58,225 bases of DNA from a virus (lineage: Duplodnaviria > Caudoviricetes), in the IMG/VR virus record IMGVR_UViG_3300049811_000412, positions 1-58,225 of that record. One strand, written 5' to 3'. The notes under the pieces were generated by a model. That model ran no database searches and was not told the DNA's origin. It saw only the letters and a list, made by a program, of their open reading frames with translations. A program made the position numbers and the translations under genes. Shown piece after piece: positions 646 through 47,032 of the stretch (position 1 is its first letter; every line of letters starts with the position of its first letter).

Positions 646-1959
646 CTAAAGCGACGGGGATTCCCCGGAGGGATTACAGCACTTCTGAGTTAGGATCGTT
701 TCACCAGGAAGATCCCAAATTCTCAGACGCCTAGGCGAAGTCAAAACGCCTCTTGCTGGGGTGCGTTGCATCCCAGTTACTTTTGCTTTGCGACCGATAT
801 TCCATGCCCCGTTGCAGTCGGCATTAACCTCAACGCCAGCGGCAGAGCGATAAGTTCCGCGCCGAATGCGTTTGCCTGAAGCCTTCCAACTCTCGGGTTT
901 TTCACCGTAGACGGGGATGGCATCAAGGTCTAACGCTGACGCTTGCGATGTATAACTTTCCTCCTGTTCAACAAACAAAATGCCGTGGGCCTCACAAAGC
1001 TGAGCAATGCGGTTTTTCAGCTTGGCCGTAGGAATCTGGACAAACTTTTGATTGGTCTTGCGGCCCATGCTGGCCTCGCTTTTTTGACCAGGGTTCCAGC
1101 CAAAAACAACCGTGCCAACACCGTACTTCAGGCAGTGGTTGACCACTGTGCGGGCCGCTTTGTTGACAGCATCGCGTATCTGGCGATTACGCTTGCCTGT
1201 CAGCTTATCCAGCAGCTTGCACCAGAAGGCTTGCTCCTTGCCGTCTTTGATGGTTGCAACCCGCTTGTTATAGCCCTGGTTGAGTGCCTTTAGATGCTTG
1301 CCATCAACGATGAAGCTATGGCCTTCGCTGTCTACGCAGGTCAGCCAGTTATCAATGCCGTGGTCAATGGCCAACGACTTCTCAGGGTCTAGCTCAACGG
1401 ATTCAGTGGGCTTGCCCGCACAAATCCAGACGGCATCAAAATAGCCCGCTCTGGGCACAATCTGAAGCTCTCTAACATCGGCCCAGTTGAGGTTGCTGGG
1501 GAAGGGTACAAAGATTTCAGGTAAGCCAAACCAGACCTTGCAGGCCGTTCCCATTGGCACCCTAACTTGGCCATCAACCAACTTAAGCCACCGCCTGGGG
1601 TAGCTGATCTGAAACATGCCACCAGAGCGGCGATAGTTGGGCGGCTTGGGCTTTTCAGTCAGTCCACTACTACGCCATAGCTTCAGCAGTTCACGGTAGC
1701 CCTTGAACGCCTCTCCAACGCTGATGCAGGTTTGCTGTGCAGCGCTGGTATAGAGCGCTTTCATGTGGGCGTTGTGCTTCATCTGGCTGGACAGCCAGCG
1801 ACCATTTGAGAATTTGCCAGCCTTGAAATACAACTGCCTAGCCAGATAAACCGTGCTGTTGTAGAGGCTGTTTGACTCCGTGCATAAATACTCCAGTGCG
1901 GCCCTTAGATCCGGGTCGCTAGGGAGTCGATTGACTTGCGCTGCAAAGGTTTTAGGCAT
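646..1959 (-). CDS. tnpB: RNA-guided nuclease TnpB
   Basis: RuvC-I LAIDHG, EESYTS, NAD-x-NGA motifs; inside IS ends. Confidence 0.93.
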   Translation of the reverse strand: MPKTFAAQVNRLPSDPDLRAALEYLCTESNSLYNSTVYLARQLYFKAGKFSNGRWLSSQMKHNAHMKALYTSAAQQTCISVGEAFKGYRELLKLWRSSGLTEKPKPPNYRRSGGMFQISYPRRWLKLVDGQVRVPMGTACKVWFGLPEIFVPFPSNLNWADVRELQIVPRAGYFDAVWICAGKPTESVELDPEKSLAIDHGIDNWLTCVDSEGHSFIVDGKHLKALNQGYNKRVATIKDGKEQAFWCKLLDKLTGKRNRQIRDAVNKAARTVVNHCLKYGVGTVVFGWNPGQKSEASMGRKTNQKFVQIPTAKLKNRIAQLCEAHGILFVEQEESYTSQASALDLDAIPVYGEKPESWKASGKRIRRGTYRSAAGVEVNADCNGAWNIGRKAKVTGMQRTPARGVLTSPRRLRIWDLPGETILTQKCCNPSGESPSL

Positions 1960-2004
1960 AAAACAAGTATACTAAAATTGTAGATAAATGGGTAGTCATC
2001 AACA

Positions 2005-2409
2005 ATGCGAGATGAGTCAATTAACTACCGCCACGGCAACCACTCGGTAGGGCTGGCCCATGTTCACTTGGTCTGGATTCCGAAGCGGCGGAAAAAGGTT
2101 TTGGTTGGCAGCGTCAAGCTGAGGTTGTCCGCGATACTCAATGAAGTGGCCCTAGAGAATGGTTGGTTGGTTAAGGCTCTAGAAATAGCCCCCGACCACG
2201 TTCACATTCTGGTAGAACATGGCTCCCAGGTTGCCGTCCACCAAATAGTCAAAGCAATGAAGGGGCGTTCATCTCGACTGCTCAGGCAGGAGTTCCCCCA
2301 CCTCTGCAAGCTACCTTCCCTGTGGACTCGCTCATATTTTTACGACACGACGGGGAAGGTGAGCACGGCAAAGATCATGGCCTACATCAACGACCCTCAC
2401 CATGCCTGA
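2005..2409 (+). CDS. tnpA: IS200-type HUH (Y1) transposase TnpA
   Basis: HLVWIPKRRK, PDHVH (HUH), LWTRSYF, C-terminal YI. Confidence 0.95.
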   Translation: MRDESINYRHGNHSVGLAHVHLVWIPKRRKKVLVGSVKLRLSAILNEVALENGWLVKALEIAPDHVHILVEHGSQVAVHQIVKAMKGRSSRLLRQEFPHLCKLPSLWTRSYFYDTTGKVSTAKIMAYINDPHHA

Positions 2410-2485
2410 CGGCGGCTAAAACCGCTGTGTCGCTTTTCCGCCCCGCTCTAAAGAGACGGGGCTACCAAGCTCACGAGTTTTTATC

Positions 2486-3586
2486 GTGTGGAATGATGCA
2501 CTGGCACTGATTAAGTCAACGCCGAAAGGCGAGACGTGGCCCAGTAATGCTGAGTTGCAGAAAATCTGCATCACCCAAGCCAAGCAGGCTGAGGGACGGG
2601 AATGGCTGGCCGAGGTCAGCAACATCCCGTTGCAGCAGTCCATTCAGGACTTGGGCGTTGCATTCAAAAACTTCTTCGACTACCGCAAGGGAAAGAGGAA
2701 AGGATCACGGGTCGGGTTCCCTCGGTTTAAGAAGAAACTCAACCAGCAGTCCGCTCGTTTTCGGAAGGGCGGGTTCTCCATCAAGGCCGGGAAAGTCTAC
2801 CTGGCCAAGATTGGGCACATCAAAGCCAAGTGGTCAAGGCCATTGCCCTCTGAACCTAGCTCTGTCACAGTCATCAAAGACTGTGCAGGACGGTATTTCC
2901 TGAGCTTTGTGGTGGAGGTGGAGCCTATCACCGTCGAACCCAAAAACCAAGGGGTTGGCGTGGATTTGGGCATTGAAACCTTAGCGACCCTCAGTACCGG
3001 GGAGAAAATCAAAGCCCCGGACACTCAATTTCTGGACAAGCACATTCGCAAAGGGAAGCGAAAACTCGCTAGGGCCATGAAAGGCTCGAAGCGGCGTGAA
3101 TCGTTGCGACTGGCCATTGCCAGGATGGAGGCTAAACAGCGCGACATTCGCCAAGACTTCAACCAAAAGCTGGCTTCTCGCCTAGTGCGGGAAAACCGTG
3201 TGGTGGTCTTGGAGGACTTGAACGTGGCGGGAATGGTGAAGAACCGTTCTCTGTCCAGGGCGATTAGTCGGGCTGGATGGCGGCAACTTAGAACCCTCTG
3301 TGAGGGTAAGGCCCACCTGATCCACGACCGGGAGGTAAGAACCATCAGCCGATGGGAACCTACATCCCAAGTGTGTTCATGTTGTGGCTATCGCTGGGGC
3401 AAATTGGACTTATCGGTGCGGTCAGTGTTATGTCTCAACTGCGGGGCCGAACACGACCGAGACATCAACGCCAGCGTGAATATCTTGGCGGCTGGGCAAG
3501 CCGACCCGAATGGGCAAACGCTAAGCTATGTAAGACCCCAATCTGGGGCAGCGGCTTGTTTGTCTACCCATCAGGAGTACGCTTAG
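2486..3586 (+). pseudogene. tnpB: TnpB lacking the first ~28 residues
   Basis: Begins VWNDALAL, aligning with internal VYNDALAI of the 47217 TnpB; GVDLG, VLEDL, DRD and Zn ribbon intact. Confidence 0.88.
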
Positions 3587-3635
3587 TGCGGGCAGACTGG
3601 GAATCCTCGCGCCTTTAGGCCGAGGAGGATGTCAA
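2486..3635 (+). mobile_element. IS200/IS605 element #2, 3' part only
   Basis: Right end GAAT-CCTCG..CGAGG-AGGAT-GTCAA (3601-3635); 5' side abuts IS#1 left end. Confidence 0.88.
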
Positions 3636-4035
3636 CCGTCGATGCAAACCTAAACCGGGTGAATGCGGCGAGTTTCTGTCCAATGGTCAAGCTGCAAAGT
3701 CTGGCCTGAATAAAAGTTTTGCTGATGCTGGGATAGCTGGGTTCCTGAACGAGACCTTGCCTTATGTGGCTGAAAGAGCTGGTAAGCAAGTCGTGAAGGT
3801 CAACCCCGCTGGTACGTCCCAGCATTGTGCAATTTGCCTGAACCGAGTACCGAAGGAGTTGTCAGACCGCTGGCATAGCTGCCCCCACTGTGGAGCCTCT
3901 ATGCCGCGAGACGTGAACTCTGGGGTGCTCATCAAGAAAGTGGGCCTGGGACATCGGCTCACTATAAAACGCGAAGGTCGAAAGACTGGAGAAGCCCGCC
4001 CTCTACGCGAAGCGTGAGGGTCGGGAGTATGTCAC
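3636..4035 (+). mobile_element. tnpB: IS200/IS605 element #3, 3' remnant with tnpB C-terminus (frame 3637-4017)
   Basis: RRCKPK..NGQAAKSGLNKSFADAG..VNPAGTSQHC..CPHCG..RD; right end GAAG-hairpin-GTCAC ending 4035. Confidence 0.85.
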
Positions 4036-4229
4036 GCATAGCGGCGGTTGTTGTAGCGGCTAACCAGGGCGTCGTGAACTTCCTTGGCTTCCTGCATGGC
4101 CTGCTCGGCCCGGTCTTGAGTGGTAAATCCTCCAAGGTATTCGCCATTCCAGTCCCAGGCGTCGTAGGTGGTTTCGGCGCTGTTGATGGTTTTGTCGATG
4201 CGGCCTAGGCGGGTGGTATGAGGTGTAGG

Positions 4230-5612
4230 TCATGGGGAAACCTCAGCCAGGGTGAATCGTGCAGGGGATTGTCCATCGCTAGCAACGGTGCCGTGATCAG
4301 TGGCCATACGGTCTAGGGCAAAGGCTATGTTTTCGGTCGTCAGTTTTTTGAGGTTTGTCGATTGTTGCCGCACTTCGCTAGCCAGCATGGGGGCATTGTG
4401 CTTTTCTAGGATGGCCAGGATCAGGTCAGCAATGTCTTCCACCACTACCGGGGGCACCATCTCAGCATCAGGGTCGAAGTTGGGCACCGCAACCCGGATC
4501 GGCGTGTCCTTTTGCCCTGGATAGTAGATATTGCAGTAGCCCGTGGGTACCGCTTTGCCGCCTTCACCAATGGTGCCGAGCATTTCGATTTCGAGCAACG
4601 ACTGGTCACGTTGGGCGGCTACCCCTGCTTTGCCGCCCAAGCTGGTTAGCGTGCGACCGTGGGCGATGAACAGGCTGTGCATGGCGATCTTGCGAATGTC
4701 GCTCATGCTACTAGCAAAGAATGCGGAGGCATCGGGGCAATGGCTAGACCAGTTGGTGAACTCTTCCGTGACGACGGTTAGGGGCTTGGGGTTGTACTCA
4801 GGGCGCTTGGCTAGTTCGGTGTAGCGGGCCTTCACCAGGGCTGCAAAGTGCTGTAGCCGTTCATTGCAGGCGGCGTAGTCCATCCCAGCCCCAGATACAG
4901 GTAGCCCTTTCCATGCACCATAGGCGGCGTGGGGGTCTAGCACCTCGATCATGTGCCCTGCCTTCATGCGCTCATTGATGAACCACTTTGCCAGGGTGCT
5001 TTTGCCGCTCCCTTGGGGGCCATAGATTAGCACCGCCGGATAAGCTAGGCATTCCCGGAGGATGTCGTGGGCGGTGGCCTCTGGTTTGGGCTCTGGGTCA
5101 TCGTCCCATTCCATCGTTGGCATAGGGGCAACGGGCATCGCCACGGGGGCAACAGGAGCCGCATGGGGCAATTCTTCGACAGACACGGGGGCAGGCTCAG
5201 CAGGGCGCAGGGGTTTCAAGATGCTGGCAATTCGGGCTTTGTTCGCGCCCCCGTTCAAAAACTTTCGCCCAGCCGCTTTGATGGGCAGCTTGCGGGCTTT
5301 GGCCTTGTTCAGTTCCACCAGCACTTGCTCTGGCCCACGGTATTCAACGTAGCTGTCGAACGTGGGGCCATCAAACAAGTGGGCCATAATGCCATCGTCG
5401 ATGGCGGCCAGGTGGTTGCTGGCTTCTTCGTTGCTATTCCACGATTGGAAAAACGATGCCCCCGCCAAGAATGCCCCTGCCACGGGGTTTAGTAGGGCCG
5501 CAACGCCAATCCCGCCAACGCCACCTCCAACCATCCAGATTTTGAACTCATCCTCTGGAATGGCTTTTTCAGCCCTAGCGATCCACTTCACTTCATCCAC
5601 TGTCCACTGCAT
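4230..5612 (-). CDS. FtsK/HerA-superfamily P-loop ATPase with N-terminal TM segment and C-terminal winged-helix-like domain
   Basis: Hydrophobic aa ~25-55; Walker A GPQGSGKS; Walker B-like LTVVTEEF; IRKIAMHSLFIAH like FtsK/HerA Arg-finger plus strand; wHTH-like tail. Confidence 0.7.
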   Translation of the reverse strand: MQWTVDEVKWIARAEKAIPEDEFKIWMVGGGVGGIGVAALLNPVAGAFLAGASFFQSWNSNEEASNHLAAIDDGIMAHLFDGPTFDSYVEYRGPEQVLVELNKAKARKLPIKAAGRKFLNGGANKARIASILKPLRPAEPAPVSVEELPHAAPVAPVAMPVAPMPTMEWDDDPEPKPEATAHDILRECLAYPAVLIYGPQGSGKSTLAKWFINERMKAGHMIEVLDPHAAYGAWKGLPVSGAGMDYAACNERLQHFAALVKARYTELAKRPEYNPKPLTVVTEEFTNWSSHCPDASAFFASSMSDIRKIAMHSLFIAHGRTLTSLGGKAGVAAQRDQSLLEIEMLGTIGEGGKAVPTGYCNIYYPGQKDTPIRVAVPNFDPDAEMVPPVVVEDIADLILAILEKHNAPMLASEVRQQSTNLKKLTTENIAFALDRMATDHGTVASDGQSPARFTLAEVSP

Positions 5613-5623
5613 CTCAAAATCTC

Positions 5624-6409
5624 CTACGCTTTGCGCTTGCTAACAATGACTTGCTGCTTATTCAGGTACAGCACAACCTTCAACATCGCCTCGAAGACAA
5701 ACATCATGGCGACCAACATGCCGATATTTGGCCAGTTCAGTTGTCCCCATCGCCCTGTGAGAATGAGAAAAAAGAACTCTCGCAGTGAATCCGCCGGAGG
5801 GAACACCGTGGCGCACATCACAGCGTCCAATCCATACGCGACCCACATCCACCGTTTAGCAATGCGGATGCTGGAGGCAGAAACCTTGTTGTAGGCTTCC
5901 TTCAGCGCCACGGCTTCGTTGTCGTCGTCACTGTCAATGCTGAGCGAGTCGCCATTTTTGCGATGAGCTAGCAGGTTGCGAATTGCCTCTCGGTCATGCA
6001 GCAACACGACGTAGTAGGTTTCCGCAAACTGGAGTAGGCCCCAACTGGCAGTGCCACAAAACACAGCAACCCAGGCTGCTTGAGGCACCATCATCCCGTT
6101 GCTGGCAGCAAAGTCTTGGCCCATCCGAAACAATCGAATGTACGGCTGGACGTTCCACACACAGACGATGCCACCAACGGTTAGGGCGCAGGCCCACATC
6201 CCCCGCTGGACAAAATTGGTGAGCGATAGCTTTGAAGCCTTAGATGTTGAAAGAGTAGTGGCCATAGGTTTTGCTTTCGGGGGTTTGGCTGATGGTGGCT
6301 TGGGTAGCCCTTCGCTGGGCGGCACTGTAAAAAAGGACTGAGGCACACCCTGGTTTACGCTAAAGGGCGGCTGATTCGGTGGCGGGCTCGACGGGCGCGG
6401 GCTGAACAT
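5624..6409 (-). CDS. Multi-pass membrane protein (3-4 TM)
   Basis: Several hydrophobic stretches; tightly coupled to the ATPase gene. Confidence 0.75.
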   Translation of the reverse strand: MFSPRPSSPPPNQPPFSVNQGVPQSFFTVPPSEGLPKPPSAKPPKAKPMATTLSTSKASKLSLTNFVQRGMWACALTVGGIVCVWNVQPYIRLFRMGQDFAASNGMMVPQAAWVAVFCGTASWGLLQFAETYYVVLLHDREAIRNLLAHRKNGDSLSIDSDDDNEAVALKEAYNKVSASSIRIAKRWMWVAYGLDAVMCATVFPPADSLREFFFLILTGRWGQLNWPNIGMLVAMMFVFEAMLKVVLYLNKQQVIVSKRKA

Positions 6410-6890
6410 TGTTGACCTCCTGGCCGTTTATGAACATGTTTTCTTCAAACTGTGGGAATTGCCGCAGACGGCTGAGCACAACCTCCCGATCTCCCGTGAA
6501 GGCAAACGACTGGGCCACGGGAAGCCCCTCGGCGTTGTGCTGCATGATGGCCGTGTTGCCATTGGCATCACACACAATCGTTCCGGCGGGGATGGGAAAC
6601 TGTGTCTCTGGATCGAGAACCACTTCGTTTTCGACTAGAGACACCCAATCGGTTTGGCCCCAATTCACCACAGGTTGGCAACCCAAAACGGTGTACCGTT
6701 CGTTGGCAATTTCGGCCATAGCCTTAGCCGAATCCTGCTGGAGCATTAGATCGGCATGGGTTGCCATGTCAGCATTAGACTGGTCGCGCATCGACTGAAA
6801 GTCGGCCAGAGTGCTATTAGCATTGCCTAGGCTGGGAATCGCCGCCACAAATGCAACCCCTGCTAGGCCCAAAGTAATCATCTGGTTCAT
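6360..6890 (-). CDS. Membrane-anchored or exported protein
   Basis: GAGAGGGG RBS-like sequence before ATG 6890; N-terminal hydrophobic MITLGLAGVAFVAAI. Confidence 0.7.
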   Translation of the reverse strand: MNQMITLGLAGVAFVAAIPSLGNANSTLADFQSMRDQSNADMATHADLMLQQDSAKAMAEIANERYTVLGCQPVVNWGQTDWVSLVENEVVLDPETQFPIPAGTIVCDANGNTAIMQHNAEGLPVAQSFAFTGDREVVLSRLRQFPQFEENMFINGQEVNNVQPAPVEPATESAAL

Positions 6891-6929
6891 ATCTAGTCCC
6901 CTCTCGTAGACTCCCTGAAAACTCTCTAA

Positions 6930-7027
6930 CGCCCATCTAATGGGCCATCTGGCCATCTCGTAGCTATCTGGCAAGGCATCTGGAAGAGGCAATCTTAGAT
7001 AGGCTTTAGATGCCCTCCAGATGGGCC
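6930..7027. repeat. Intergenic inverted array of ATCT/AGAT cores
   Basis: ATCT at 6935, 6947, 6955, 6966, 6978, 6992 then AGAT at 6997, 7008, 7019. Confidence 0.7.
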
Positions 7028-7072
7028 GTAGCGGGTTCGCTGTGTCCTCCGCCATGGCCCATAGCAAACGGG

Positions 7073-7513
7073 CTACTTGGTATTGCTGCTGTCGGCAGTA
7101 GCGGTCAAGGAGGCCCGTGGCGTCGCCTGTGGTAAGGGCTGATAGGAGATCGGCCTCAAGGTCGGAGTTTGAATGGTCAATTTTTCGCCCGTCGGATGCG
7201 CTGCCATCAGCTGCCCCACATTGCGGGCGATTTGGTTGAAAAAACTGCCACCGCTGAGCACGTCATACAGCAGTTCTGAGGCTTGGTCGGCTACCCGCTG
7301 CGAGGCTTCTTGGTACTCATCCGCAACGGCTTGAATCCCTTGCGCACGGGCGGTTAGAGCCCCGTTGACTTGGTTGCGTAGCTGGGCAATTTCCGCCGCC
7401 ACTTGGGCACGGAAAGCCCGGTCGTCAGACCCCAAAGAAGCTGGCCCAGTCGGTTGCTGGGGCGGGGTTTGGGGCTTGTTGTTGCTGTTGGGGTCGAACC
7501 CTTTGTTGGACAT
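7073..7513 (-). CDS. Hypothetical coiled-coil protein
   Basis: GGAGAAG RBS; helical composition; operon position. Confidence 0.7.
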   Translation of the reverse strand: MSNKGFDPNSNNKPQTPPQQPTGPASLGSDDRAFRAQVAAEIAQLRNQVNGALTARAQGIQAVADEYQEASQRVADQASELLYDVLSGGSFFNQIARNVGQLMAAHPTGEKLTIQTPTLRPISYQPLPQATPRASLTATADSSNTK

Positions 7514-7766
7514 GGTTGGCTTCTCCTAAGAACCGTTGGATGGACTCCTCTGAATACCCTTGCTGAAACCATGCAGCGATTTGAGCCAGGGCCATGCACT
7601 GAAGTTTCGTGAAGGCTTTAAGCCCCGGATCGACGCCCGCTAGGTTGCACCAGCGCCACATGGTTTTTTTCGAGATTTGCCGCCGCTCCCCTGGATACCG
7701 AATCCTCGATAGCTCAGCTATCACAAGGGCTCTGGCATACGTGGGAGGGGAAACAAACGGTTGCAT
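7425..7766 (-). CDS. HTH DNA-binding protein (MerR/excisionase-like)
   Basis: ISKKTMWRWCNLAGV recognition-helix pattern; first gene of leftward operon. Confidence 0.55.
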   Translation of the reverse strand: MQPFVSPPTYARALVIAELSRIRYPGERRQISKKTMWRWCNLAGVDPGLKAFTKLQCMALAQIAAWFQQGYSEESIQRFLGEANHVQQRVRPQQQQQAPNPAPATDWASFFGV

Positions 7767-7769
7767 GGG

Positions 7770-7790
7770 GGTTTCATAGAGGTTTCATAG
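7770..7790. promoter_or_regulatory. Tandem GGTTTCATAG repeat, candidate operator
   Basis: Exact 10-mers at 7770 and 7781 (11-bp period) between divergent genes. Confidence 0.45.
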
Positions 7791-7904
7791 CCTGAGGATA
7801 ACAGTCTTAGGTCACTTATGCAACGCAATTACATCGCTTTTGTGATGAGTTTGATAGAATGCCCGTGATTGCAGATAATTTGAGGATTGTTTATGGGCGA
7901 TGCA

Positions 7905-8120
7905 ATGGCACCGGATCGGAACCAGGTCACGTTGACGCTAAGCGACAGGGCGATGGAAGAATTTACCTTGGTAGCAGACTGGCTGGGAATGCCGCGCAAC
8001 ACGCTGATCCGGCAGGTGGTTGAGGCTCACCACCAGAACCCTAGCTTTGGCAATCTGGTACGCAGAGCAAGGACGGGGGACAAAGCGCCCACTAGCTATC
8101 ACACCGATGATGAGGACTAA
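7905..8120 (+). CDS. Ribbon-helix-helix regulator
   Basis: NQVTLTLSD beta ribbon followed by two helices (LGMPRNTLIRQVVE). Confidence 0.65.
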   Translation: MAPDRNQVTLTLSDRAMEEFTLVADWLGMPRNTLIRQVVEAHHQNPSFGNLVRRARTGDKAPTSYHTDDED

Positions 8121-8216
8121 CCCATGCTCACCGCCCACGTCACCCCAGCCCCACACCGAAGCTACCCGGCCATCGTCGGGCTACCCTTCCACCTCCTGCA
8201 CGAGGGCAACCCCGCC

Positions 8217-8435
8217 CATAACGTGCAGCTAACGGGCACGGCTCCCCGGTGACGCCCCAAGTCCTTGCCCCGTCTGCGGTGCTCCCCACTTTGGGGTAGT
8301 GGGGGTCGTGGGTTCAAATCCCGCCGCTCCGATAGTCAAAAGGCCAGTCCATCAAGGGCGGGCCTTTTTGCTGTGGGTATCGTTGGGTAGCGTTAGGGGC
8401 GGTTGGGCGACGCATAACGTGCAGATAACGTGCAG
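8217..8435 (+). other. attP: core (3' 47 nt of tRNA-Pro GGG, 8286-8332) flanked by arm-type repeats
   Basis: CCACT-TTGGGGT-AGTGG anticodon arm, GTGGGTTCAAATCCCGC T arm and CGCTCCGA, no 5' half; ATAACGTGCAG at 8218, 8414, 8425; integrase about 0.9 kb away. Confidence 0.82.
8338..8369 (+). terminator. Intrinsic terminator after att core
   Basis: AAAAGGCC..GGCCTTTTT hairpin plus U tract. Confidence 0.7.
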
Positions 8436-8457
8436 CAGTTTTTGCTATGCTGGTTAC

Positions 8458-8534
8458 ACCGGGGTGGTGGAACGGATTACCATGTCGGGTTCATACCCCG
8501 AAGATTGCAAGTTCAACTCTTGCCCCCGATACCA
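8458..8534 (+). tRNA. tRNA-Met(CAT), initiator-like
   Basis: ACCGGGG/CCCCGAT acceptor, TCGGG-TTCATAC-CCCGA anticodon arm, GCAAG-TTCAACT-CTTGC T arm, encoded CCA; TATGCT -10 at 8446. Confidence 0.88.
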
Positions 8535-8575
8535 TTTAAAAACGCGCTTAGTGGAGGTAGGTAGCGCACCCTCCA

Positions 8576-8600
8576 AGCCCTGGCTTTTGCTGGGGCTTTT
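8576..8600 (+). terminator. Intrinsic terminator after tRNA
   Basis: AAGCCC..GGGCTTTT hairpin plus U tract. Confidence 0.65.
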
Positions 8601-8899
8601 GTTTTGGGGCCAACGGGAATTCCCGTTGACGTAGGGATTTGCGATTAAGCACCCCAGCCCCCATGCCGCCTAGGTTTGTCGGATCGCAGGGCCAAAAAAT
8701 GGGTTTGCTTTGAAGCACTCGGTATCTGGCTGGACACAAAGGTTGTCCCAAAACGTGACAACCTCGCATACGGTGTATCTAGCCTGTGCAAGCCATGCAG
8801 GGCTGTCAACACCGCACCCATCGAACCGTCAAGGATTCCTTGACGGTTGACACTACCCCCACACCACACCTCCTGCATACTGTGTACTGTATACAATGC

Positions 8900-9250
8900 C
8901 CTTATATAGATAGATATTTATAAATAAATTACTAAGTATTTATTTCCTCCATTGGGGTGATAGTGTCAGTGCTTTTTCTTTTGTCAGCATAGTGTCAGTA
9001 GGGCGCTGACAGAATCAAACCCTTGCTACATCTAGGTTTCAGCTATTCAGTCAATCAGTCAGTGGAATTTCACCCCTAGCCGTTTTTTTAGGTAGTACAT
9101 AAAGCCCCTCTACCCTTATGGAGAAAAATATACCCCTATAGAACGCACTGACTGATTGACTGAATCGGCATGAACCTATGCATGGCAAGGGTTTGGGTCT
9201 GCTGACAATATGCTGTCACTACTGCTGACAGATAAAAACTGCTGACTGAA
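8900..9250. repeat. Candidate replication origin: AT-rich tract plus long imperfect inverted repeat of CTGAC/GTCAG units
   Basis: AT-rich 8900-8945; ATTCAGTCAATCAGTCAGTG at 9045 is the exact reverse complement of CACTGACTGATTGACTGAAT at 9146. Confidence 0.6.
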
Positions 9251-10393
9251 TCAAAACCCCGGCATCTCTGGCCTGTCGATCATGTGGGCGTAGTGTCGAG
9301 CGGTGGTCTCCGGGGTGTTGCCGAGGGTAGCGGCAACTTGGGGGATGGATGCGCCCTGCTCCAGGAGGTGGGAACCGAGGCTGTGGCGTGCCGAGTAGGG
9401 CACACGGTCGATCCCTGCGAGGGCACAAATGCGCTTCCAGATGCGCTGGCTAAAGTTGGAATCGTTGATCGGGTTGCCCCGTGGGGAGAGAAACACCAGG
9501 TTATCGGGCTTGGCATTGTCCGGCCTGCGATTTGTCAACATGGCCACCATGTCGGGATGGAGGGTGATGGTGCGGGCCTTGTTGGTTTTGGTGCCCTTGC
9601 GCTGCCGTGCCCAGCCAGCCGTCTTGCCATCGGGGCCACGGGCTAGGGATTCGGAGATGGTCACTTGCCCTCGCTCAAGGTCAATGTGCCTCCATCGCAG
9701 CCCCACCGCCTCCGAGGGGCGCACCCCCAGGTAGAACAGCGTCATGACAAAATCGTGGTAGGGCGCGGCGTAGCGGTCGGCCTTGGCAGCATCCAAGACG
9801 GTGCGGATCTGTGCGGCGGTGAGGGGTTGGCGCTTGGGGTTGGGTTGCCGTGCGGTCTTGAGGCGCGGGATATCGGCCCAAGGGTTGTTGGCTAGGTGCC
9901 CCTGCTTGGTGGTCCAACGGCCAAACCCTCGTAGGCGGGATAGGTTCTGGTTTGCCACCGTGGGGGATTGCCGGGATCGGAGGTGCTCCACAAAAGCGGT
10001 GGCCTCAGCCTCGGTGGTGATGTTCTTGCCCCATCGGGATAAGTGGCTGAGCAGCGGCTGGTATCCGGCGGTGATGGTCTGGCCGCTGGTTCCTTCCGAG
10101 CGGCGGTAGGCCATGAACCGCTCGAACAGTTCCGCCGTAGTGGCCTGGGGTGGCGGTGCCTCCGGTTCGGGCTGGGGCCGATAGCGCTCTAGGGTTGGGT
10201 CAAACTGTTCCCTCGCAATGTCGCCTTGGATTGTGGCCGCCAGAGCAACAGCGCGTTGATAGTTCAGCGGGCTATCGGGCAAGCCCAAAGCAAGCTGGTA
10301 GGGTTGGCGCTCATGCGTCCATCGCAGTCGCAACATCCCATTGCGGCTGGTGATGGATACACTGCCTTTCTTGGCCCGCCGTGGCCTACGCAC
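9251..10393 (-). CDS. int: Tyrosine integrase with N-terminal arm-binding domain
   Basis: GVRPSEAVGLRW, YSARHS, LGN, HY catalytic motifs; N-terminal LRLRW arm-binding beta domain. Confidence 0.93.
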   Translation of the reverse strand: MRRPRRAKKGSVSITSRNGMLRLRWTHERQPYQLALGLPDSPLNYQRAVALAATIQGDIAREQFDPTLERYRPQPEPEAPPPQATTAELFERFMAYRRSEGTSGQTITAGYQPLLSHLSRWGKNITTEAEATAFVEHLRSRQSPTVANQNLSRLRGFGRWTTKQGHLANNPWADIPRLKTARQPNPKRQPLTAAQIRTVLDAAKADRYAAPYHDFVMTLFYLGVRPSEAVGLRWRHIDLERGQVTISESLARGPDGKTAGWARQRKGTKTNKARTITLHPDMVAMLTNRRPDNAKPDNLVFLSPRGNPINDSNFSQRIWKRICALAGIDRVPYSARHSLGSHLLEQGASIPQVAATLGNTPETTARHYAHMIDRPEMPGF

Positions 10394-10501: not shown

Positions 10502-11089
10502 ATGATCAAACCCGATTGGTGGATTTCTCAGCAAGCCCAGCAGGGGATGATTACCCCATTCCAGCCCAATTTGATTAGGGGACTAGAGCGGCGGGGGTCT
10601 ATGCGCAAGGTCATCAGCTATGGCGCGTCATCCTACGGCTACGATATTCGCCTCAGTGCCGCCGACTTTCGAGTGTTCCGCCACATTCCCGGCACCGTCG
10701 TAGACCCCAAGAATTTCAGCCCTGCCAACCTAGAAAGCGTTGAACTGCACAGCGATGACCAGGGCGAGTATTTCATTCTTCCAGCGCATTCCTACGGGCT
10801 AGGGGTTGCTGTGGAACGGCTGCAAGTGCCGGACAATGTGACCGTCATCTGCATTGGCAAATCGACGTATGCGAGAGCGGGCATCATTGCCAACATTACC
10901 CCCGCCGAGGCTGGATGGCGGGGGCATCTCACCCTAGAATTTTCCAATTCCTCCAGCGCTGACTGCCGGGTGTACGCTGGCGAGGGCGTGGTGCAGTTGC
11001 TCTTCTTTGAGGGCGAACCCTGCGAGACGACCTACGAGGGCCGCAAGTACCAAGACCAGGAAGAGCGCGTGACGCTGGCTAGGGTGTAG
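10502..11089 (+). CDS. dcd: dCTP deaminase
   Basis: ISYGASSYGYD, GKSTYARAG, TPAEAGWRG, YAGEGVVQ, KYQ. Confidence 0.93.
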   Translation: MIKPDWWISQQAQQGMITPFQPNLIRGLERRGSMRKVISYGASSYGYDIRLSAADFRVFRHIPGTVVDPKNFSPANLESVELHSDDQGEYFILPAHSYGLGVAVERLQVPDNVTVICIGKSTYARAGIIANITPAEAGWRGHLTLEFSNSSSADCRVYAGEGVVQLLFFEGEPCETTYEGRKYQDQEERVTLARV

Positions 11090-12847: not shown

Positions 12848-13311
12848 TAGCTACCCCTCACAATTACCACAAACTCAGCGGGCAGGTTGAACCCCTCGGC
12901 CATTGTTGCCCAGGTTTCTCGCTGGGCTGGGGATACCTCGGCCAGGGTGCAAATCTGACTATACAAAAAGGCAAACATGGCCGTTTGCCCTGTGCTGATC
13001 TGAGTCATCGCAGCAGGCAGCGCTTCTGTAATTCCAGGGTTAATCCCTCTCACAATAGCGGTTGCCGCTTGCCAATTTGGTTCCAATAAAATTGCCGCAT
13101 TCAGCGCATCCCAGTCTGGCTCTGGCAGTGCAGCGGGTGGCTCCCAAGTTGTTGTAATTTCCCCGGTCTCCCAATCTATAATCCATTCAGAGCGTGGGCC
13201 TGGGGGCAAAGGGTGGTCATCAGGTAGTTTCAAATACCGACCATCGGGAGCGACCCAATCATCCCCCGGCAGTATTAGCTGTGGCCCATTTGGTGTGTCT
13301 AATAGAATCAT
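12847..13311 (-). CDS. Putative tail fibre assembly or accessory protein
   Basis: Directly downstream of fibre gene; size and PEPDW motif. Confidence 0.45.
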   Translation of the reverse strand: MILLDTPNGPQLILPGDDWVAPDGRYLKLPDDHPLPPGPRSEWIIDWETGEITTTWEPPAALPEPDWDALNAAILLEPNWQAATAIVRGINPGITEALPAAMTQISTGQTAMFAFLYSQICTLAEVSPAQRETWATMAEGFNLPAEFVVIVRGS

Positions 13312-13319
13312 TTTTCCTG

Positions 13320-14489
13320 CTAGTAAATGAATAAAACTTGGCCAAGTAAAGCTGAAATCGGACTACTTGGCGCTAAATCTCTCTGATTAAATTTAATAGC
13401 ATTGCCTTCGACCACCACCAGTGGATAAGGCGTGATATTGGCATAATCTATGGTTGCGACTTTCAAAGTCGGACTTGATGGCAAGGCATATGCAGACGTC
13501 CATGAGAAAATGGTACTCGAATCAGTAGGAACGGAGGCTGCACCTACGCAAAACTCGACTATAACCAAGCGTAAAAACTCATTTACTCGGACACGAGTAG
13601 GATGACTCCCGACGAGAACCGGATCAAATTCAGCCCCAAACGTTAACGATAGAGTTGTCCAATTTCCTAGTGCAGGAATGCCTAAACTATCCCGAACTGT
13701 AGCACCTGACTCCGTCACCCAATCCGTACCATTACCCACAATAAAATTGCCATCATTGGGGGTCAATGCTGCAATGGTGGTTAGGTCGCTGTCAAGCGGT
13801 TGAGCACCAATGGCCGTGCGAAAGTCGGCGGCTGACAGGGCGCTGATAGTGTTGTCCGGGTTGACTCGTGGGAACGTGATTGCGCTGGGATTGGTGAGGG
13901 TGAACAGGTTGCTCCCTACCGTTGTGGCCCCTAGGGTTGTTCGTGCGGCGGCGGCGTTGGCGTCGTCAATTAGGCTTTTGCCATAGGTGCTGACGGTGTA
14001 GGTGCCGTAGGTGGTGGCCCCGGTTTTTTCCAGGGTGCCAGAGGTGGCCGCGGGAATAGCCCCGGCGCGGGTGATTTGGTCTGCTGTCCATCCCGACACG
14101 GTGGTGATGTTGGCAGGGACGCTGGTGATAGTTGACCATGCCTGGGTGTGGCTGGTAGGTGCTGCGCCGATGTAGGCGAGGGCGGCGGCGGCATCTGCCA
14201 ACGTCAGCATCCCCCGGCCATATCCTGTAGTCGTGAGGGCGGCAATGTCGGTGAGGTTGGTGTTGAGCGGCTGAGCATCGGTGATGCCAAATCCCTCTAG
14301 GGTAGTGGGCTTGCCGCTGATGCTGCCCCAAGTGACGCCCGTGCGACAGTAGGTGGCTAGGGCGTCAATGTCGATTCGGCCATCGCTAGAGCCGCCCACC
14401 TCCAAAAATTGCCCAGCAGCAGGGGCAACCAAGGCCAGGTCGGTGATGGTGTAGCCCGTGATGGGCAGTGTGGTAATCGGCGTGGTCAT
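13320..14489 (-). CDS. Tail fibre protein
   Basis: WGSISGKPTTLEGFGITDA fibre repeat; AAAARTTLG and AQPL-x-x-x-LT-x-IAAL repeats. Confidence 0.8.
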   Translation of the reverse strand: MTTPITTLPITGYTITDLALVAPAAGQFLEVGGSSDGRIDIDALATYCRTGVTWGSISGKPTTLEGFGITDAQPLNTNLTDIAALTTTGYGRGMLTLADAAAALAYIGAAPTSHTQAWSTITSVPANITTVSGWTADQITRAGAIPAATSGTLEKTGATTYGTYTVSTYGKSLIDDANAAAARTTLGATTVGSNLFTLTNPSAITFPRVNPDNTISALSAADFRTAIGAQPLDSDLTTIAALTPNDGNFIVGNGTDWVTESGATVRDSLGIPALGNWTTLSLTFGAEFDPVLVGSHPTRVRVNEFLRLVIVEFCVGAASVPTDSSTIFSWTSAYALPSSPTLKVATIDYANITPYPLVVVEGNAIKFNQRDLAPSSPISALLGQVLFIY

Positions 14490-16261
14490 AGAATGCGGGC
14501 CTCCCCGGTAGCGGTTACTCGAATGCCTCCAGCCACGGCGCGAACCTCCTTAGAAACCTGAACAGCGGGCGGGCTGATGGTGCCCCCCACAATGCGCCCC
14601 AACTCAATTCCCTTGCCCCCTATCGACGCATCGCGCTGGGTAATCACCAACTGCAACGCCTCTACCAGGTAACTCGTAGTGATTCCGCCTAGGGTAAAGT
14701 CTACGCGCTGCACGGGGTTGAAATTGGTGAGCCATTCGGCAGTAAGGTCTGCGGCCCACTTGATGGGGAACTGTCGGCCCTGACGGATGCGGCCCCAGTG
14801 TTCCGCCATCCGTCGGCATTGGGTATCGCTGATGCCCATCCCTGAGGGCAGTTGCACCGACCACAGCTTTTCGGCAAAGCCACTGCCCGCGGGCGAAGAG
14901 AAACGGGCTTGGCCCTGGAACTGCTTTTCGGTGCGTTGCTTTTCGGCGGGTCGGTAGGATGTAGCCGGGGGCGTGTTGTTGGTAGATGCGCCTCTGCGTT
15001 CGGGTAGAGAGGGCTGGGTCTGGTCAAAGTTGGTTTGGGTGCGCTGGTAGGTGTATTCCTCGGCCCCTACCTTTGTCCAGCGTTCGATGGTGATTTGGGC
15101 CTTAGCCAGTTGTGCCGTATTGCCAGTTCTCACAGAGCGCTCAATAGTCGTCCGCCGTTCCTTGAGGATGTCGTCAAAATCGTAGATGTACTGAATAGTG
15201 GTGCGTTCTGCCTGGATCAGCGAGTCAGGGTTGATGCTGTTGTCATTGGGAAACACAAAACCGATAGGCCGCTCAATAAGGTCAACTTCGGTTGTCAGCT
15301 TGGCATCCAAGGGATTGTAAATCTGAGTTTTGGTCAGCCGACTATCTACGGTCAGGGCATCAGGATTAACCCAGGGAATGTTTGGCATCACCACGCCCAG
15401 TGGTTGCTCTACCTGCTCAATGTAGATAGGCTGATCGGTGCCCCTATCCCGATAGGTAACGGTCGTCCGCACCGTCACCCCGTCTACCTCATCGGTGGTA
15501 ACAAAGCTCTCGTCCTCGACAGCCTCGATCTTATAGGTCGTCCCCTGCACCTTCACCACCTCCGGCGGTTGCTCCCCTGGTGCCTCTGGGATGTAGTCGG
15601 CCTCATTGGTGCCCACGGTGTAAGCGGCTAGGGGCGTGGCCAGGGCATCGAGGTCAAACGGCACCGCCCGGATTGCCCCATCGGCCTGTTGCCAGAGGAC
15701 GTGCTTAGCCGCGTAGGCCACCGATCCGGCGTAGGTCATCCACGAACCGCCCGTGTTTTTTTCTGGGCTGAAGGGCAGGTTCAACCCCGTCACAGTGTCG
15801 CTAAGGGTTGGTGCCCCAGCTTTGGCGAGGGCGCGGTTAATCAGCGTCGTTGCCCCGGTCGGTGTGCCGTACTCATCGGTGCCAGGGTCGCCCTCAGGGG
15901 CGCGATAGTTCAGCAGGTCGGCATCACCGCCGAGGTCGAGGCTGATGGTGGGCTGGCCAGGGTAAGGCCGATTCGGGTAGGCCAGAATCCGTAGGTGCCA
16001 TGGCAGGGGCACCCAGCCCGCCCCCAGGTCAACCGAGATCGCAACCACGGTTCCCGGTGCCCAGCGGGTGGGGTTGTCGCGGCAATCGAAGGACTCCGGT
16101 TGTCCCTCCCAGTAGGCGGCGAGTTCCAACTGCCCACGAGGCTTAAACCATCCGCTTTCGTCCCAGGTGCCCGCCCCAATGGAAAGCTGCACAAAAGCGG
16201 GGGAGAGGTCGAGTCCTCCCACCACCACCTGAACTGGAACGCTGCGAAGGTTAACGGTCAT
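14486..16261 (-). CDS. Tail hub or central tail-tip protein
   Basis: ~590 aa, downstream of tape measure and Dit-like gene. Confidence 0.6.
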   Translation of the reverse strand: MTVNLRSVPVQVVVGGLDLSPAFVQLSIGAGTWDESGWFKPRGQLELAAYWEGQPESFDCRDNPTRWAPGTVVAISVDLGAGWVPLPWHLRILAYPNRPYPGQPTISLDLGGDADLLNYRAPEGDPGTDEYGTPTGATTLINRALAKAGAPTLSDTVTGLNLPFSPEKNTGGSWMTYAGSVAYAAKHVLWQQADGAIRAVPFDLDALATPLAAYTVGTNEADYIPEAPGEQPPEVVKVQGTTYKIEAVEDESFVTTDEVDGVTVRTTVTYRDRGTDQPIYIEQVEQPLGVVMPNIPWVNPDALTVDSRLTKTQIYNPLDAKLTTEVDLIERPIGFVFPNDNSINPDSLIQAERTTIQYIYDFDDILKERRTTIERSVRTGNTAQLAKAQITIERWTKVGAEEYTYQRTQTNFDQTQPSLPERRGASTNNTPPATSYRPAEKQRTEKQFQGQARFSSPAGSGFAEKLWSVQLPSGMGISDTQCRRMAEHWGRIRQGRQFPIKWAADLTAEWLTNFNPVQRVDFTLGGITTSYLVEALQLVITQRDASIGGKGIELGRIVGGTISPPAVQVSKEVRAVAGGIRVTATGEARIL

Positions 16262-32823: not shown

Positions 32824-33774
32824 TTAGGCGGCGGCGGCACCGTCCTGAATGCCATAGAGGCGGGCTACGGAGCGACCGTTGAGAATGGCCATACCGCAAT
32901 CCCAATGCACACGGGTGAGGTAGTTAGGGCTTTCCTGAATGCGGCCAAAGTCTTCAGCGTAGATGCCGTTGACGCCGTTGGATGGCCCCTGAATGCCCGT
33001 GGTCAGCAAGTCGCCAAAGCGGCAAATGTAGACCGATGTGCAATCGGTAGCCGTGGTGCCATCGGGACTAGTTTCGGTGAAGGGTAGAATGGGGTTGCCT
33101 TGCTCATCATCCTCAATGGTGATGATTTCGCAGCCTCGGTAGCTCATGATCTCTTCGCCGAGTTCATTCACCTGGTAGCGAAGCATCCCAGCCCCACTAG
33201 CCCGGAAGAATTGCTCTAGCCGCCGTTTCACGGTGTCGTTGCAGAACATGAACTTGCGGCCCGTGCCAGCCTTCACCTGGTCAATGGCGGTATCCAGGGA
33301 ATTGATGCTCAGAACGTTCCCGGTGCCATCGGCCCCATTCACAATCAACTGGTTGCCCGTAATGCGCCGCTGTAGTCCGTCGAATTCTTCAGGGGATAGG
33401 GAAGCATCGCCCTTGAAAAATGCCTTCTCAAACCGTAGGCGGGCCGCTTCAAGCTTCAGTTGGACATGGCTTTGTCGAGCGGCTTGACCATGGCGATCTA
33501 CCAGGGCTACATCGACTTTCATATCGCCGCCAAACAACTTGAGGGCTTCCGACTGGGGATTCATCACACCCGCGTCATCGTCAAAGCTTTGGTTGATGCC
33601 ACGAAAGCCAATGCCAGGAAGTTTGGCCGTGGTGTTGTAAAACAGACCGCCCCCGGTCACATCGCGGAAGGGGAGAACTTGCAGCAGACGGCTCTGCAAA
33701 AATTCGTTGATAACGAAAACCTGAGTTGGGTTGGTGCTGAGTTTTTTGTACTCCAGCAACGTCATCGTAGCCAT
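32824..33774 (-). CDS. Major capsid protein
   Basis: LLQVLPF, FRGIN, FFKGD..EFDGL, RLYGI; follows scaffold. Confidence 0.88.
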   Translation of the reverse strand: MATMTLLEYKKLSTNPTQVFVINEFLQSRLLQVLPFRDVTGGGLFYNTTAKLPGIGFRGINQSFDDDAGVMNPQSEALKLFGGDMKVDVALVDRHGQAARQSHVQLKLEAARLRFEKAFFKGDASLSPEEFDGLQRRITGNQLIVNGADGTGNVLSINSLDTAIDQVKAGTGRKFMFCNDTVKRRLEQFFRASGAGMLRYQVNELGEEIMSYRGCEIITIEDDEQGNPILPFTETSPDGTTATDCTSVYICRFGDLLTTGIQGPSNGVNGIYAEDFGRIQESPNYLTRVHWDCGMAILNGRSVARLYGIQDGAAAA

Positions 33775-35550: not shown

Positions 35551-35939
35551 AGCGTTTGAATTACCCGCCCTGTAAGGATGAACGGTTGTAGCTGGTCATG
35601 CTCATCCAGGTATTTGAGGATGGTGTTGATATAGCCCCGACGTTGCCCTTGGGTCGCGGCGCTGAATGCCCCCGGTGAGTGGGTTGAGATTCGCACCTCA
35701 TTGTCAATGTCGATCACGTTGTAGCCGTCCTGCTGCTGTAGCGCGGGCAATGCGGCTGTAGCGTCCTCCCATGCCCCCAGGGCGTCCAGAACTCCCGTGA
35801 CTAAGGTTGCCCCGTGGGCGGCATCAAAGGCCGCTAGGTCGGCCATCAAGGTCGCCAGAATCGAGCCGTCTTTCAACTGGTCTTTGGTGAGGTTTAGGCA
35901 CGTCACCAACCGCTGTCTATCGCCCGTAGCAAAGGCCAT
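35547..35939 (-). CDS. Putative head-tail adaptor
   Basis: Helical 130 aa after portal. Confidence 0.45.
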   Translation of the reverse strand: MAFATGDRQRLVTCLNLTKDQLKDGSILATLMADLAAFDAAHGATLVTGVLDALGAWEDATAALPALQQQDGYNVIDIDNEVRISTHSPGAFSAATQGQRRGYINTILKYLDEHDQLQPFILTGRVIQTL

Positions 35940-46802: not shown

Positions 46803-47032
46803 GCCACACCCCCTTGAAACGCTGGGGATGCTGCCACAAACCATAGGCACACTGGCCTGAAATGCAGTAAAATATTCATAATTTCCTTGTTACGAAATTG
46901 TCTTTTGCTGGGTTTGCTGACTGGTAATCAGCGTCCTCTAATTCTACCCTGCTACTCTGTCTGGTTCCCCCCTTGGCTCATCACCGAGGGGGGTATTTTT
47001 TTACCAAAAACCTGGGTCTAAAGCCCCGTCCT

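Follow-up and report, generated by a model that had tools for sequence, protein, structure and literature searches.

In Streptomyces, double-stranded plasmid DNA (dsDNA) is moved between hyphae and across septa by a hexamer of the ATPase TraB, together with Spd proteins and a divergently encoded repressor, as described in PMC4447253. According to the same source, TraB works without a relaxase, its C-terminus binds clt, and SpdB2, a pore-forming protein with four transmembrane (4-TM) segments, co-purifies with it; homologs of SpdB2 are present on some actinophages (PMC4447253). A 2012 survey places homologs of TraB only in Actinobacteria and homologs of TcpA only in Firmicutes, with 63% of the TcpA matches colocalizing with VirB4 (PMC3548315). 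Here we describe a locus with a comparable layout on a tailed-phage record, IMGVR_UViG_3300049811_000412, the whole of which (58,225 bp, linear, CheckV completeness about 70%) was analyzed and is referred to below as the window. At 4230–8120, five collinear open reading frames (ORFs) on the minus strand and one divergent ORF on the plus strand encode a predicted membrane-anchored ATPase with an FtsK/TcpA-like motor and a winged-helix tail, two membrane proteins and further small proteins. Homologous modules are found on plasmids and integrating elements of cyanobacteria, and we tentatively read this one as a machine that would move dsDNA from cell to cell.

A sequence-only reading of this DNA had described the six ORFs as an operon with a divergent regulator, and both were recovered where it had placed them, in frames favored by a codon-usage score for which nine clear genes of the same record served as the training set (Table 1). 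The score is 0.18–0.33 in the annotated frame for the ATPase, the 4-TM protein, the anchored protein and cc146 (0.27–0.33 for cc146 itself), with all other frames negative, and is weak for hth113 (0.006–0.058) and for the ribbon-helix-helix (RHH)-like protein (0.089). Two of the gene starts of that reading had to be moved. The 4-TM protein, which carries a conserved charged loop (HDR...LKE.YN), probably starts at M49, and the upstream extension is probably not translated; in the alignment, the eight homologs have their first residue at the position of M49, and the extension has a codon score of −0.30. The start of the anchored protein is probably M60; its ESM Atlas entry begins at residue 60, and the homologs in loci L001–L005 are 156–184 amino acids long. 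In the 235-residue ORF, a hydrophobic helix spans residues 63–81 and is followed by a C-terminal domain of about 150 residues that has no recognized fold. In the ESM Atlas, the anchored protein yielded no usable feature match and structure TM-scores of 0.24–0.33, and the best feature score for the 4-TM protein, 0.77, is under the lead level.

The first part of the operon is less well defined. The ORFs of hth113 and cc146 overlap by 89 nucleotides, so that one of the two boundaries must be wrong. The helix-turn-helix attributed to hth113 by the sequence-only reading found no backing in Pfam, PHROGs, NCBIfam or, by phmmer, PDB sequences; given its position beside the attachment site described below, hth113 might be an excisionase candidate. 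No family was found in Pfam or PHROGs for cc146, a putative coiled-coil protein in the sequence-only reading, and neither protein has a homolog in the fetched loci (tblastn, jackhmmer). The divergent ORF had been called an RHH protein, an assignment that is supported by position and falls short by score: the RHH_1 match (E 0.0018, 18.6 bits) is under the cut-off of 20.5 bits, and small ParG-annotated (RHH) genes lie divergent from the homologous operons of plasmids pn5 and pNPUN05. A weak homolog of this protein is encoded in L027. A promoter-like site at 7851–7879 is not above chance. Across Pfam, PHROGs, NCBIfam and PADLOC, the six ORFs yielded sub-threshold P-loop matches for the ATPase and, among the rest, only the sub-threshold RHH_1 match.

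The ATPase is predicted to consist of four parts: a helical N-domain (residues 1–131) with a single hydrophobic segment at 32–50 in a Kyte-Doolittle scan; a disordered, proline/alanine-rich linker (132–170); a P-loop motor (178–390, approximately nucleotides 4443–5081) with an alpha/beta core at 181–375, Walker A (GPQGSGKS) at 198–205 and Walker B (TEEF) at 282–285; and a winged helix at about residues 391–455 (approximately nucleotides 4248–4442), with the order helix, (strand), helix, helix, hairpin. The mean predicted local confidence (pLDDT) of the AlphaFold2 model is 80.7. In an alignment of 35 of the 48 homologs (13 fragments or near-duplicates were left out), the invariant positions are G198, G201, G203 and K204 of the P-loop, D226-P227-H228, E284, D305-R307-K308 and H318; we take the last two motifs to resemble the arginine-finger and sensor region of FtsK. 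At least one N-terminal hydrophobic segment is predicted in 25 of 34 relatives at a threshold of 1.5, with the glycine-rich segment of the Nodosilinea proteins scoring below that threshold.

In the predicted structure, the motor is closest in fold to TcpA and FtsK. VIA-align matches it to TcpA of pCW3 with Z of 16.1–16.8 and a root-mean-square deviation (rmsd) of 3.0–3.4 Å over 190–192 residues at 13–16% identity, and to FtsK motors with Z of 15.1–15.8 and 3.2–3.3 Å over 195–199 residues at 16–20% identity. EccC/EssC (12.6–13.8), HerA complexes (11.9–12.7) and PilT (about 12) rank lower, such that the TcpA and FtsK matches stand about 3 Z units above those to HerA, PilT and RecA-type proteins; the top Foldseek match of the model is an FtsK motor as well (E 2e-6). 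The tail was folded separately, the C-terminal 80 residues together with eight homologous tails (pLDDT 80.5), and all 50 of the top 50 matches are winged-helix domains (Z 7.9–9.9 over 58–77 aligned residues, with an rmsd of 1.4–3 Å in most and up to 5.0 Å), among them Z-alpha, IclR/TtgV, Rrf2, ArsR, Fur, MarR, SelB and Rpc34; the gamma domain of FtsK is not among the matches listed. Foldseek gave weak E values for the tail (0.02–0.2), with TM-scores up to 0.86 by target. Thus the FtsK-like motor with a winged-helix-like tail of the sequence-only reading is what the models show, its membrane anchor being predicted from hydropathy, and a DNA-binding role of the tail would follow from its fold. 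A C-terminus other than a winged helix, which would have spoken against that reading, is not what the models give.

At the sequence level, the ATPase matches no Pfam, NCBIfam, PHROG or PADLOC family over cut-off; the best specific match is DUF87/HerA (E 0.002), and phmmer against PDB sequences returned P-loop-only matches. Three other identities were considered and rejected: a second terminase or packaging ATPase, as the window already has a normal large terminase (TerL) and portal; VirB4, as there is no PF03135 match; and a transposition ATPase, as the match to phrog_296 is confined to the P-loop.

The ATPase does not occur alone. Homologs of the anchored and 4-TM proteins, which the sequence-only reading had placed upstream of it, lie directly upstream of the ATPase gene in L001–L005 and, as weak matches, in L032 (tblastn, jackhmmer). 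Synteny was scored over 34 loci (32 from genomes and 2 from plasmids), three of which lack upstream sequence; in 27 of the remaining 31, an ORF of 93–275 amino acids with at least two predicted transmembrane segments is directly upstream of the ATPase. Of the others, two have one such segment and one has none, and in L030 an ORF with three segments is located 320 nucleotides upstream. The next gene upstream encodes either an anchored protein of 156–184 amino acids (the Nodosilinea type, as here) or a soluble protein of 220–254 amino acids (the Nostoc/Microcoleus type), the consensus of which we read as Gln/Lys-rich and helical; a profile of these soluble proteins found no PDB sequence at E≤1.

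The Nodosilinea genome G001 contains four such triads, three of which combine a conserved ATPase N-domain and 4-TM protein with a P-loop domain that differs greatly from the one seen here (Table 1). The retention of the N-domain and the 4-TM protein despite the exchange of the motor argues that these two work together. The converse is seen in L055, where the same motor (70% identity) is joined to a different N-domain and no phage genes are present. A complex prediction for the N-domain and the 4-TM protein weakly suggests that they are in contact: runs share at least 87% of their contacts, the pLDDT of the partner is at least 77, and the interface score ipSAE is 0.58 against 0.00 for the best of three controls, a value within the band (up to 0.60) that is rated weak, in which predictions are wrong more often than right for pairs that were not already likely partners. 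In L046, a 776-residue amidase-LysM-M23 peptidoglycan hydrolase is encoded at 13016–15346, about 3.7 kb downstream of the Nodosilinea triad.

The family to which the ATPase belongs is large and, as far as it could be assigned, cyanobacterial. A word-indexed search returned 48 proteins at E≤1e-3, the named ones from Phormidium tenue, Nodosilinea, Microcoleus, Limnothrix and "Cyanophyceae", and an exhaustive search returned 896 representative clusters at the same threshold (321 at 1e-10 and 121 at 1e-30). Among contigs sampled at one genome per species, 32 of 77 pattern matches were confirmed, all of them cyanobacterial; 28 are named to filamentous genera or Oscillatoriales and four only as cyanobacteria. 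In PLSDB, 24 plasmids match (all at less than 60% identity, none covering 80% of the query), from Nostoc (14), Calothrix (3), Microchaete (2), Tolypothrix (2), Scytonema (1), Kovacikia (1) and Pseudanabaena (1), all of which are filamentous; genera are taken here as filamentous or unicellular in the customary sense. For comparison, the CyRepA1 replication protein of pn5 matches 246 plasmids, including those of Acaryochloris (22), Synechococcus (17), Picosynechococcus (9) and Synechocystis (8). A restriction of the family to filamentous hosts, which the sequence-only reading had proposed to examine by phyletic distribution, is thus suggested by name lists, uncorrected for phylogeny, in which every relative named to genus or order is filamentous. 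Among 301 genomes sampled from the whole phylum, 20 have a match at E≤1e-10; these are 5.2–8.5 Mb in size and carry no taxon names, so that the count is no test of morphology.

On plasmids pn5, pCC7120delta and pNPUN05, the ATPase gene ends an operon of 7–9 genes close to the replication genes; those of pn5 and pNPUN05 are divergent from the ParG-annotated gene. In L009, L012 and L027, a tyrosine integrase gene directly follows the ATPase, with a host-type M20 peptidase gene after the integrase in L027 and Dam and DUF5131 genes upstream in L012. Given these contexts, the module is a backbone part of plasmids and integrating elements. The plasmid relatives are typed as mobilizable, with a relaxase present (17 of 24), non-mobilizable (6) or conjugative (1), compared with 63, 135 and 48, respectively, of the 246 comparator plasmids. 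On pNPUN05, a relaxase and MobC are encoded elsewhere on the plasmid, and this relaxase has no homolog in any other fetched locus. The large contigs that carry the closest named relatives, G001:C36 (61 kb) and G004:C36 (90 kb), have only the triad in common with the window. Eleven whole small module-bearing contigs (1.5–16.4 kb) show no terminal overlaps and therefore cannot be called small circular replicons.

The module adjoins an attachment site, as the sequence-only reading had noticed. The core (Table 1) is identical over 48–56 nucleotides to tRNA-Pro(GGG) genes, which it matched in 194 of 301 cyanobacterial genomes, and ARAGORN finds no 5′ half of tRNA-Pro between the module and the integrase. 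Two copies of a 22-nucleotide repeat (family D2; 91% identical, 196 nucleotides apart) lie 48 nucleotides to the left and 73 nucleotides to the right of the core, and together these elements apparently form an intact attP with arm-type sites. The only tRNA gene of the window, tRNA-Met(CAT), has no close match in any of the five cyanobacterial genomes searched (best 76% over 50 nucleotides, E 0.0055), so the DNA on the right of the core appears not to derive from a host, and the tRNA looks element-borne. The module and the integrase lie on opposite sides of attP. Because the core is flanked by the 22-nucleotide repeats, the 5′ half of tRNA-Pro is absent and the tRNA-Met side is not host DNA, the record is probably that of an unintegrated element, in which one molecule carries both the module and the integrase; integration would then place the module at the end of the prophage opposite the integrase. 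Three copies of GCTGACAGAATCAAAC-like repeats (at 9005, 9224 and 9241) lie within dense repeats at 8950–9260, between tRNA-Met and the stop codon of the integrase, and an AT-rich stretch there carries a perfect 20-nucleotide inverted repeat (9045–9064 and 9146–9165); the 8950–9260 repeats are too distant from the core for usual arm sites.

The module might also be foreign to the phage, either as a separate integrative element in tandem at tRNA-Pro or through a mis-join of the contig at repeats, which we consider unlikely. In favor of a separate element, no other phage in INPHARED or IMG/VR carries the module, the loci L009, L012 and L027 have an integrase of their own after the ATPase, and the left end of the window consists of IS200/IS605 insertion sequence (IS) debris downstream of the ATPase and a truncated DAO-type gene. 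Furthermore, the record is linear and about 70% complete, and its final 130 bases (58096–58225) repeat 627–756 at 99%, so that the contig breaks off within a repeated IS. Against it, what separates the module from the integrase is a 3′ fragment of tRNA-Pro and not the complete tRNA-Pro; the same 22-nucleotide repeat is present on both sides of the core (by a rough estimate, the chance of such a pair is about 1e-5); the DNA on the right, with tRNA-Met, is not host-like; and the other module-bearing loci are without tRNA-Pro. The DAO-like gene is itself rare, with a relative (67% identity, 238-residue frame) in 1 of 201 cyanobacterial genomes searched, Nodosilinea G001. Thus the claim that the module is phage-borne holds for this record and gains no second instance: INPHARED and IMG/VR yielded no confirmed relative, and related contigs share the triad only.

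As to function, we put forward, as a possibility that is still somewhat doubtful, that the module is a dsDNA translocon of the TraB/FtsK kind, by which the element would move from cell to cell or across septa. This reading is suggested by the structural grouping of the motor with FtsK, TcpA and EccC, which pump macromolecules through membranes; by the winged-helix tail, which points to DNA rather than protein as the substrate; by the predicted anchor and the conserved polytopic partner, which would place the motor in the membrane; and by the carriers, which are mobile elements. Under this scheme, the ATPase, presumably as an oligomer, would be held at the membrane by its N-domain docked on the adjacent 4-TM protein; the complex would be completed by the extracytoplasmic protein with its membrane anchor and by a small protein that is probably helical; the winged helix would select the dsDNA of the element itself; and the motor would pump it through the membrane or septum into the neighboring cell, by analogy with TraB and Spd. 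The divergent RHH-like protein would repress the operon, and the phage genome would gain a virion-independent route along the filament.

The likeness to the TraB/Spd systems of pSVH1, pIJ101 and pSAM2 extends over several features. There, too, a single membrane-associated FtsK-like ATPase has a C-terminal DNA-recognition domain (here a predicted winged helix) and is accompanied in one operon by an adjacent 4-TM protein and small membrane proteins, although the likeness of these partners is one of position and topology only. A small repressor (here a candidate) is encoded divergently, the carriers are small plasmids and integrase-bearing elements, and the hosts are filamentous and multicellular. 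No relaxase or type IV secretion system is recognizable in the window, and pIJ101 is typed by MOB-suite as non-mobilizable, as are 6 of the 24 cyanobacterial plasmids. In contrast to TraB, the motor is short (about 210 residues) and its homology to Tra is limited to the P-loop, the candidate repressor is RHH-like rather than GntR, the 8-bp repeats of clt were not found, and many of the plasmid relatives also carry relaxases.

The ATPase is laid out like FtsK/SpoIIIE, with a predicted membrane anchor followed by a linker, a RecA-like motor and a winged helix; it differs from FtsK/SpoIIIE in having one or two hydrophobic helices instead of four, in the lack of an evident alpha domain and in being encoded on mobile elements. 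TcpA, known from pCW3 of Clostridium perfringens and also from ICEBs1 and Tn916, shares the N-terminal anchor (here predicted) and the mobile element context and is the best structural match. TcpA, however, functions alongside a VirB4-type ATPase, a MOBT relaxase and further Tcp proteins, whereas VirB4 (PF03135) and PF02486 are absent from the window. A further parallel is offered by actinophages of mycelial hosts: FtsK-like genes are annotated in the Streptomyces phages Geonosis, Mandalore and Naboo. These FtsK-like and SpdB2-like genes are annotated singly, unlike the module, and come from another phylum; they are likened here by description.

Several results weigh against the translocon reading. 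The TraB identity proposed by the sequence-only reading does not hold at the sequence level: hhalign of the profile of the 35 aligned homologs against pIJ101 Tra aligns 36 columns around Walker A (probability 68%, E 4.6e-5), the 4-TM protein has no similarity to SpdB of pIJ101 (probability 0.06%), and PF01580 (cut-off 24 bits) matches nothing in the window at E≤10, with the plasmid relative in L033 reaching 16.3 bits (E 0.0068). By these comparisons, the ATPase appears to be neither TraB nor FtsK. No clt-like array of short direct repeats was found in 3500–9300. The short repeats near the module flank the att core and are equally readable as integrase arm sites; TAACGTGCAG occurs three times beside the core, and three matches in the window are not above chance (47 of 100 shuffles reach three). 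The ATPase is the last gene of its operon, unlike in pIJ101, where tra is first. The predicted contact between the N-domain and the 4-TM protein falls in the weak band given above. The claimed lack of a relaxase and of a type IV secretion system stands for the window, which at about 70% completeness contains no match to the relaxase families PF03432, PF01076, PF08751 and PF02486 or to VirB4 (PF03135); it does not extend to the plasmid relatives, which are relaxase-typed more often than the comparator (17 of 24 versus 63 of 246), although these counts are not independent, with 14 of the 24 from Nostoc. The apparent limitation to filamentous hosts depends on name lists, on search patterns that were themselves built from filamentous sequences and on plasmids that are related to one another (again 14 of 24 Nostoc), and the 896 relatives of the deep search carry no taxonomy. 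Neither INPHARED (no DNA or protein match to the module) nor IMG/VR (567 pattern stretches, none confirmed as relatives) holds a second phage copy. Finally, a ParM or actin-like gene opens the operon on pNPUN05 and pCC7120delta, which points to segregation.

Of the alternative functions, the least improbable is that of a pump for segregation and maintenance, which would clear element DNA through the closing septum in the manner of FtsK/SpoIIIE, together with ParM/RHH partition genes and without any transfer. In addition to the ParM and actin-like genes at the start of plasmid operons that face a ParG-annotated RHH gene, ParM homologs are encoded in L019, L021, L023 and L028, and the architecture of the ATPase is FtsK-like. 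Moreover, no canonical FtsK was found: PF01580 matches nothing in Nodosilinea G001 at E≤1e-5, and of the 14 control genomes 8 are over the cut-off, a group that does not include Synechococcus elongatus. The operon of the window, however, has no ParM homolog; an element that is integrated is copied as part of the chromosome and does not need a septal pump, yet the module persists beside integrases; and a purely cytoplasmic segregation task would not be expected to involve an anchored protein outside the cytoplasm. On balance, we regard segregation as a distinctly unlikely sole role. As a separate observation, ATPases of mobile elements may be the only FtsK-like motors in cells of the G001 type.

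Quite improbable, in our view, is a relaxase-coupled role, in which the ATPase would be the TcpA-like coupling protein of an unrecognized minimal conjugation apparatus exporting single-stranded DNA, with the phage copy a remnant or acting in trans. That TcpA is the top structural match fits this possibility, as do the MOBP or MOBV relaxases of 17 of the 24 plasmids, which have no recognized mating-pair apparatus (one plasmid is conjugative), and the relaxase and MobC of pNPUN05. TcpA-type coupling proteins are not known to have a winged-helix tail. The operon has no second ATPase, VirB4 and the four relaxase families are absent from the window, 6 of the 24 plasmids are non-mobilizable, and the pNPUN05 relaxase is without homologs in the other fetched loci. 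In the 2012 survey, TcpA homologs are confined to Firmicutes and mostly (63%) colocalize with VirB4 (PMC3548315).

A defense or superinfection exclusion function, in which a membrane FtsK/HerA-like ATPase at the prophage end would sense or expel foreign DNA, is very improbable: the predicted position of the module beside att in a lysogen is a usual place for accessory genes and HerA-family defense complexes do appear in the fold list (at Z of about 12–12.7, lower than TcpA and FtsK), but no PADLOC family was found (the best match, mad8 at 18.1 bits, covers the P-loop only, and the other five ORFs match 0 families), none of the six ORFs has an effector domain in Pfam, PHROGs, NCBIfam or PADLOC, and on small plasmids the module is in the backbone beside rep and par genes, not in variable cargo. 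Co-occurrence of the homologs with type IV secretion or defense loci, on which the sequence-only reading had also made its case depend, is thus not constant.

Table 1. Features of the module, the attachment region and the remainder of the window, followed by the ATPase paralogs of Nodosilinea genome G001 (positions of the latter refer to the respective loci)
Feature	Position	Strand	Remarks
ATPase, 460 aa	4230–5612	minus	
4-TM protein (TM213), about 213 aa	5624–6265; ORF as listed to 6409 (261 aa)	minus	four hydrophobic helices by eye; probable start at 6265, not 6409
Anchored protein (p176), about 176 aa	6360–6890; ORF as listed to 7067 (235 aa)	minus	N-terminal signal-anchor; probable start at 6890, not 7067
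cc146, 146 aa	7073–7513	minus	Ala/Gln-rich; helical by reading of sequence alone
hth113, 113 aa	7425–7766	minus	first ORF of operon
Tandem repeat, 2.9 copies of GGTTTCATAGA	7759–7790		over operon start; Tandem Repeats Finder score 43; candidate operator
RHH-like protein, 77 aa	7887–8120	plus	divergent; candidate repressor
22-nt repeat, left copy	8217–8238	plus	candidate arm-type integrase site (P arm)
Apparent attP core	8286–8340	plus	3′ 47 nt of tRNA-Pro(GGG) plus few bases, then hairpin (inverted repeat I6)
22-nt repeat, right copy	8413–8434	plus	P′ arm candidate
tRNA-Met(CAT)	8458–8534	plus	ARAGORN
Tyrosine integrase	9251–10393	minus	transcribed towards attP; Phage_integrase E 3e-24; Arm-DNA-bind_2 E 2.3e-5
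DAO-type FAD oxidoreductase	78–734	plus	5′ part only, IS-truncated
TnpB (IS200/IS605), two genes	646–1959 and 2486–3586		left 4.2 kb of window
TnpA (IS200/IS605)	2005–2409		left 4.2 kb of window
Tape-measure protein, 3,107 aa	17697–27020	minus	
Major head protein	32824–33774	minus	
Portal	35939–37414	minus	
Large terminase (TerL)	37443–38942	minus	
Primase-helicase	44142–46850	minus	
Swapped-motor paralog, L045	7055–8506		Walker A AGSREGKS, Walker B FDEA
Swapped-motor paralog, L046	7783–9288		Walker A AGSREGKS, Walker B FDEA
Swapped-motor paralog, L047	7900–9363		Walker A AGSREGKS, Walker B FDEA

The rest of the window contains a siphovirus-type gene set on the minus strand. The tape-measure ORF is unusually long for a siphovirus, and its match to tape-measure families (phrog_1533, E 4e-56) spans residues 1415–2983, approximately; the N-terminal 1,400 residues have no assignment. 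The IS200/IS605 gene cluster (646–4017), which includes a TnpB-like C-terminal fragment recognized by eye at 3757–4017, is directly downstream of the ATPase, and a further transposase (phrog_506, E 4e-105) is encoded at 47136–48428, amid the replication genes. No terminal direct repeat was found in the window. Other genes include a dCTP deaminase-like gene (DCD, E 6e-25) at 10502–11089 on the plus strand, adjoining the integrase; a PAPS-reductase-like gene (phrog_12882, E 4.5e-148) at 49651–50880 on the minus strand; and a GIY-YIG nuclease fused to a Cro/C1-type helix-turn-helix (HTH_26, E 6e-9) at 52704–53345 on the plus strand.

In the full-text literature covered, which includes few subscription journals, no FtsK/TraB-like transfer module is described in cyanobacteria or cyanophages, and mycelial Actinobacteria are so far the only bacteria known to conjugate dsDNA with a single FtsK-like motor. 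The module described here adds an unannotated branch to a known superfamily, carried by mobile elements of the second great group of bacteria that are filamentous and multicellular, where its role is plausibly analogous. A bolder generalization, which we consider rather improbable at present, is that filamentous cyanobacteria possess a TraB-like, relaxase-independent system of dsDNA conjugation or spreading of their own, which arose or diverged independently of the actinobacterial one, is carried by plasmids and integrative elements and was captured here by a tailed temperate phage, whose genome could then spread along a filament without virions. The hypothesis is directly testable, as Nostoc PCC 7120 and N. 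punctiforme, both genetic model strains, have copies of the module on pCC7120delta and pNPUN05, respectively. Were the module to serve in segregation at the septum instead, it would not lose its interest, as no canonical FtsK is recognized by PF01580 in Nodosilinea G001 or Synechococcus elongatus. If it is indeed a dsDNA translocon, it would explain the movement of cyanobacterial plasmids that are typed as mobilizable or non-mobilizable and would provide a phage genome with a virion-independent route.

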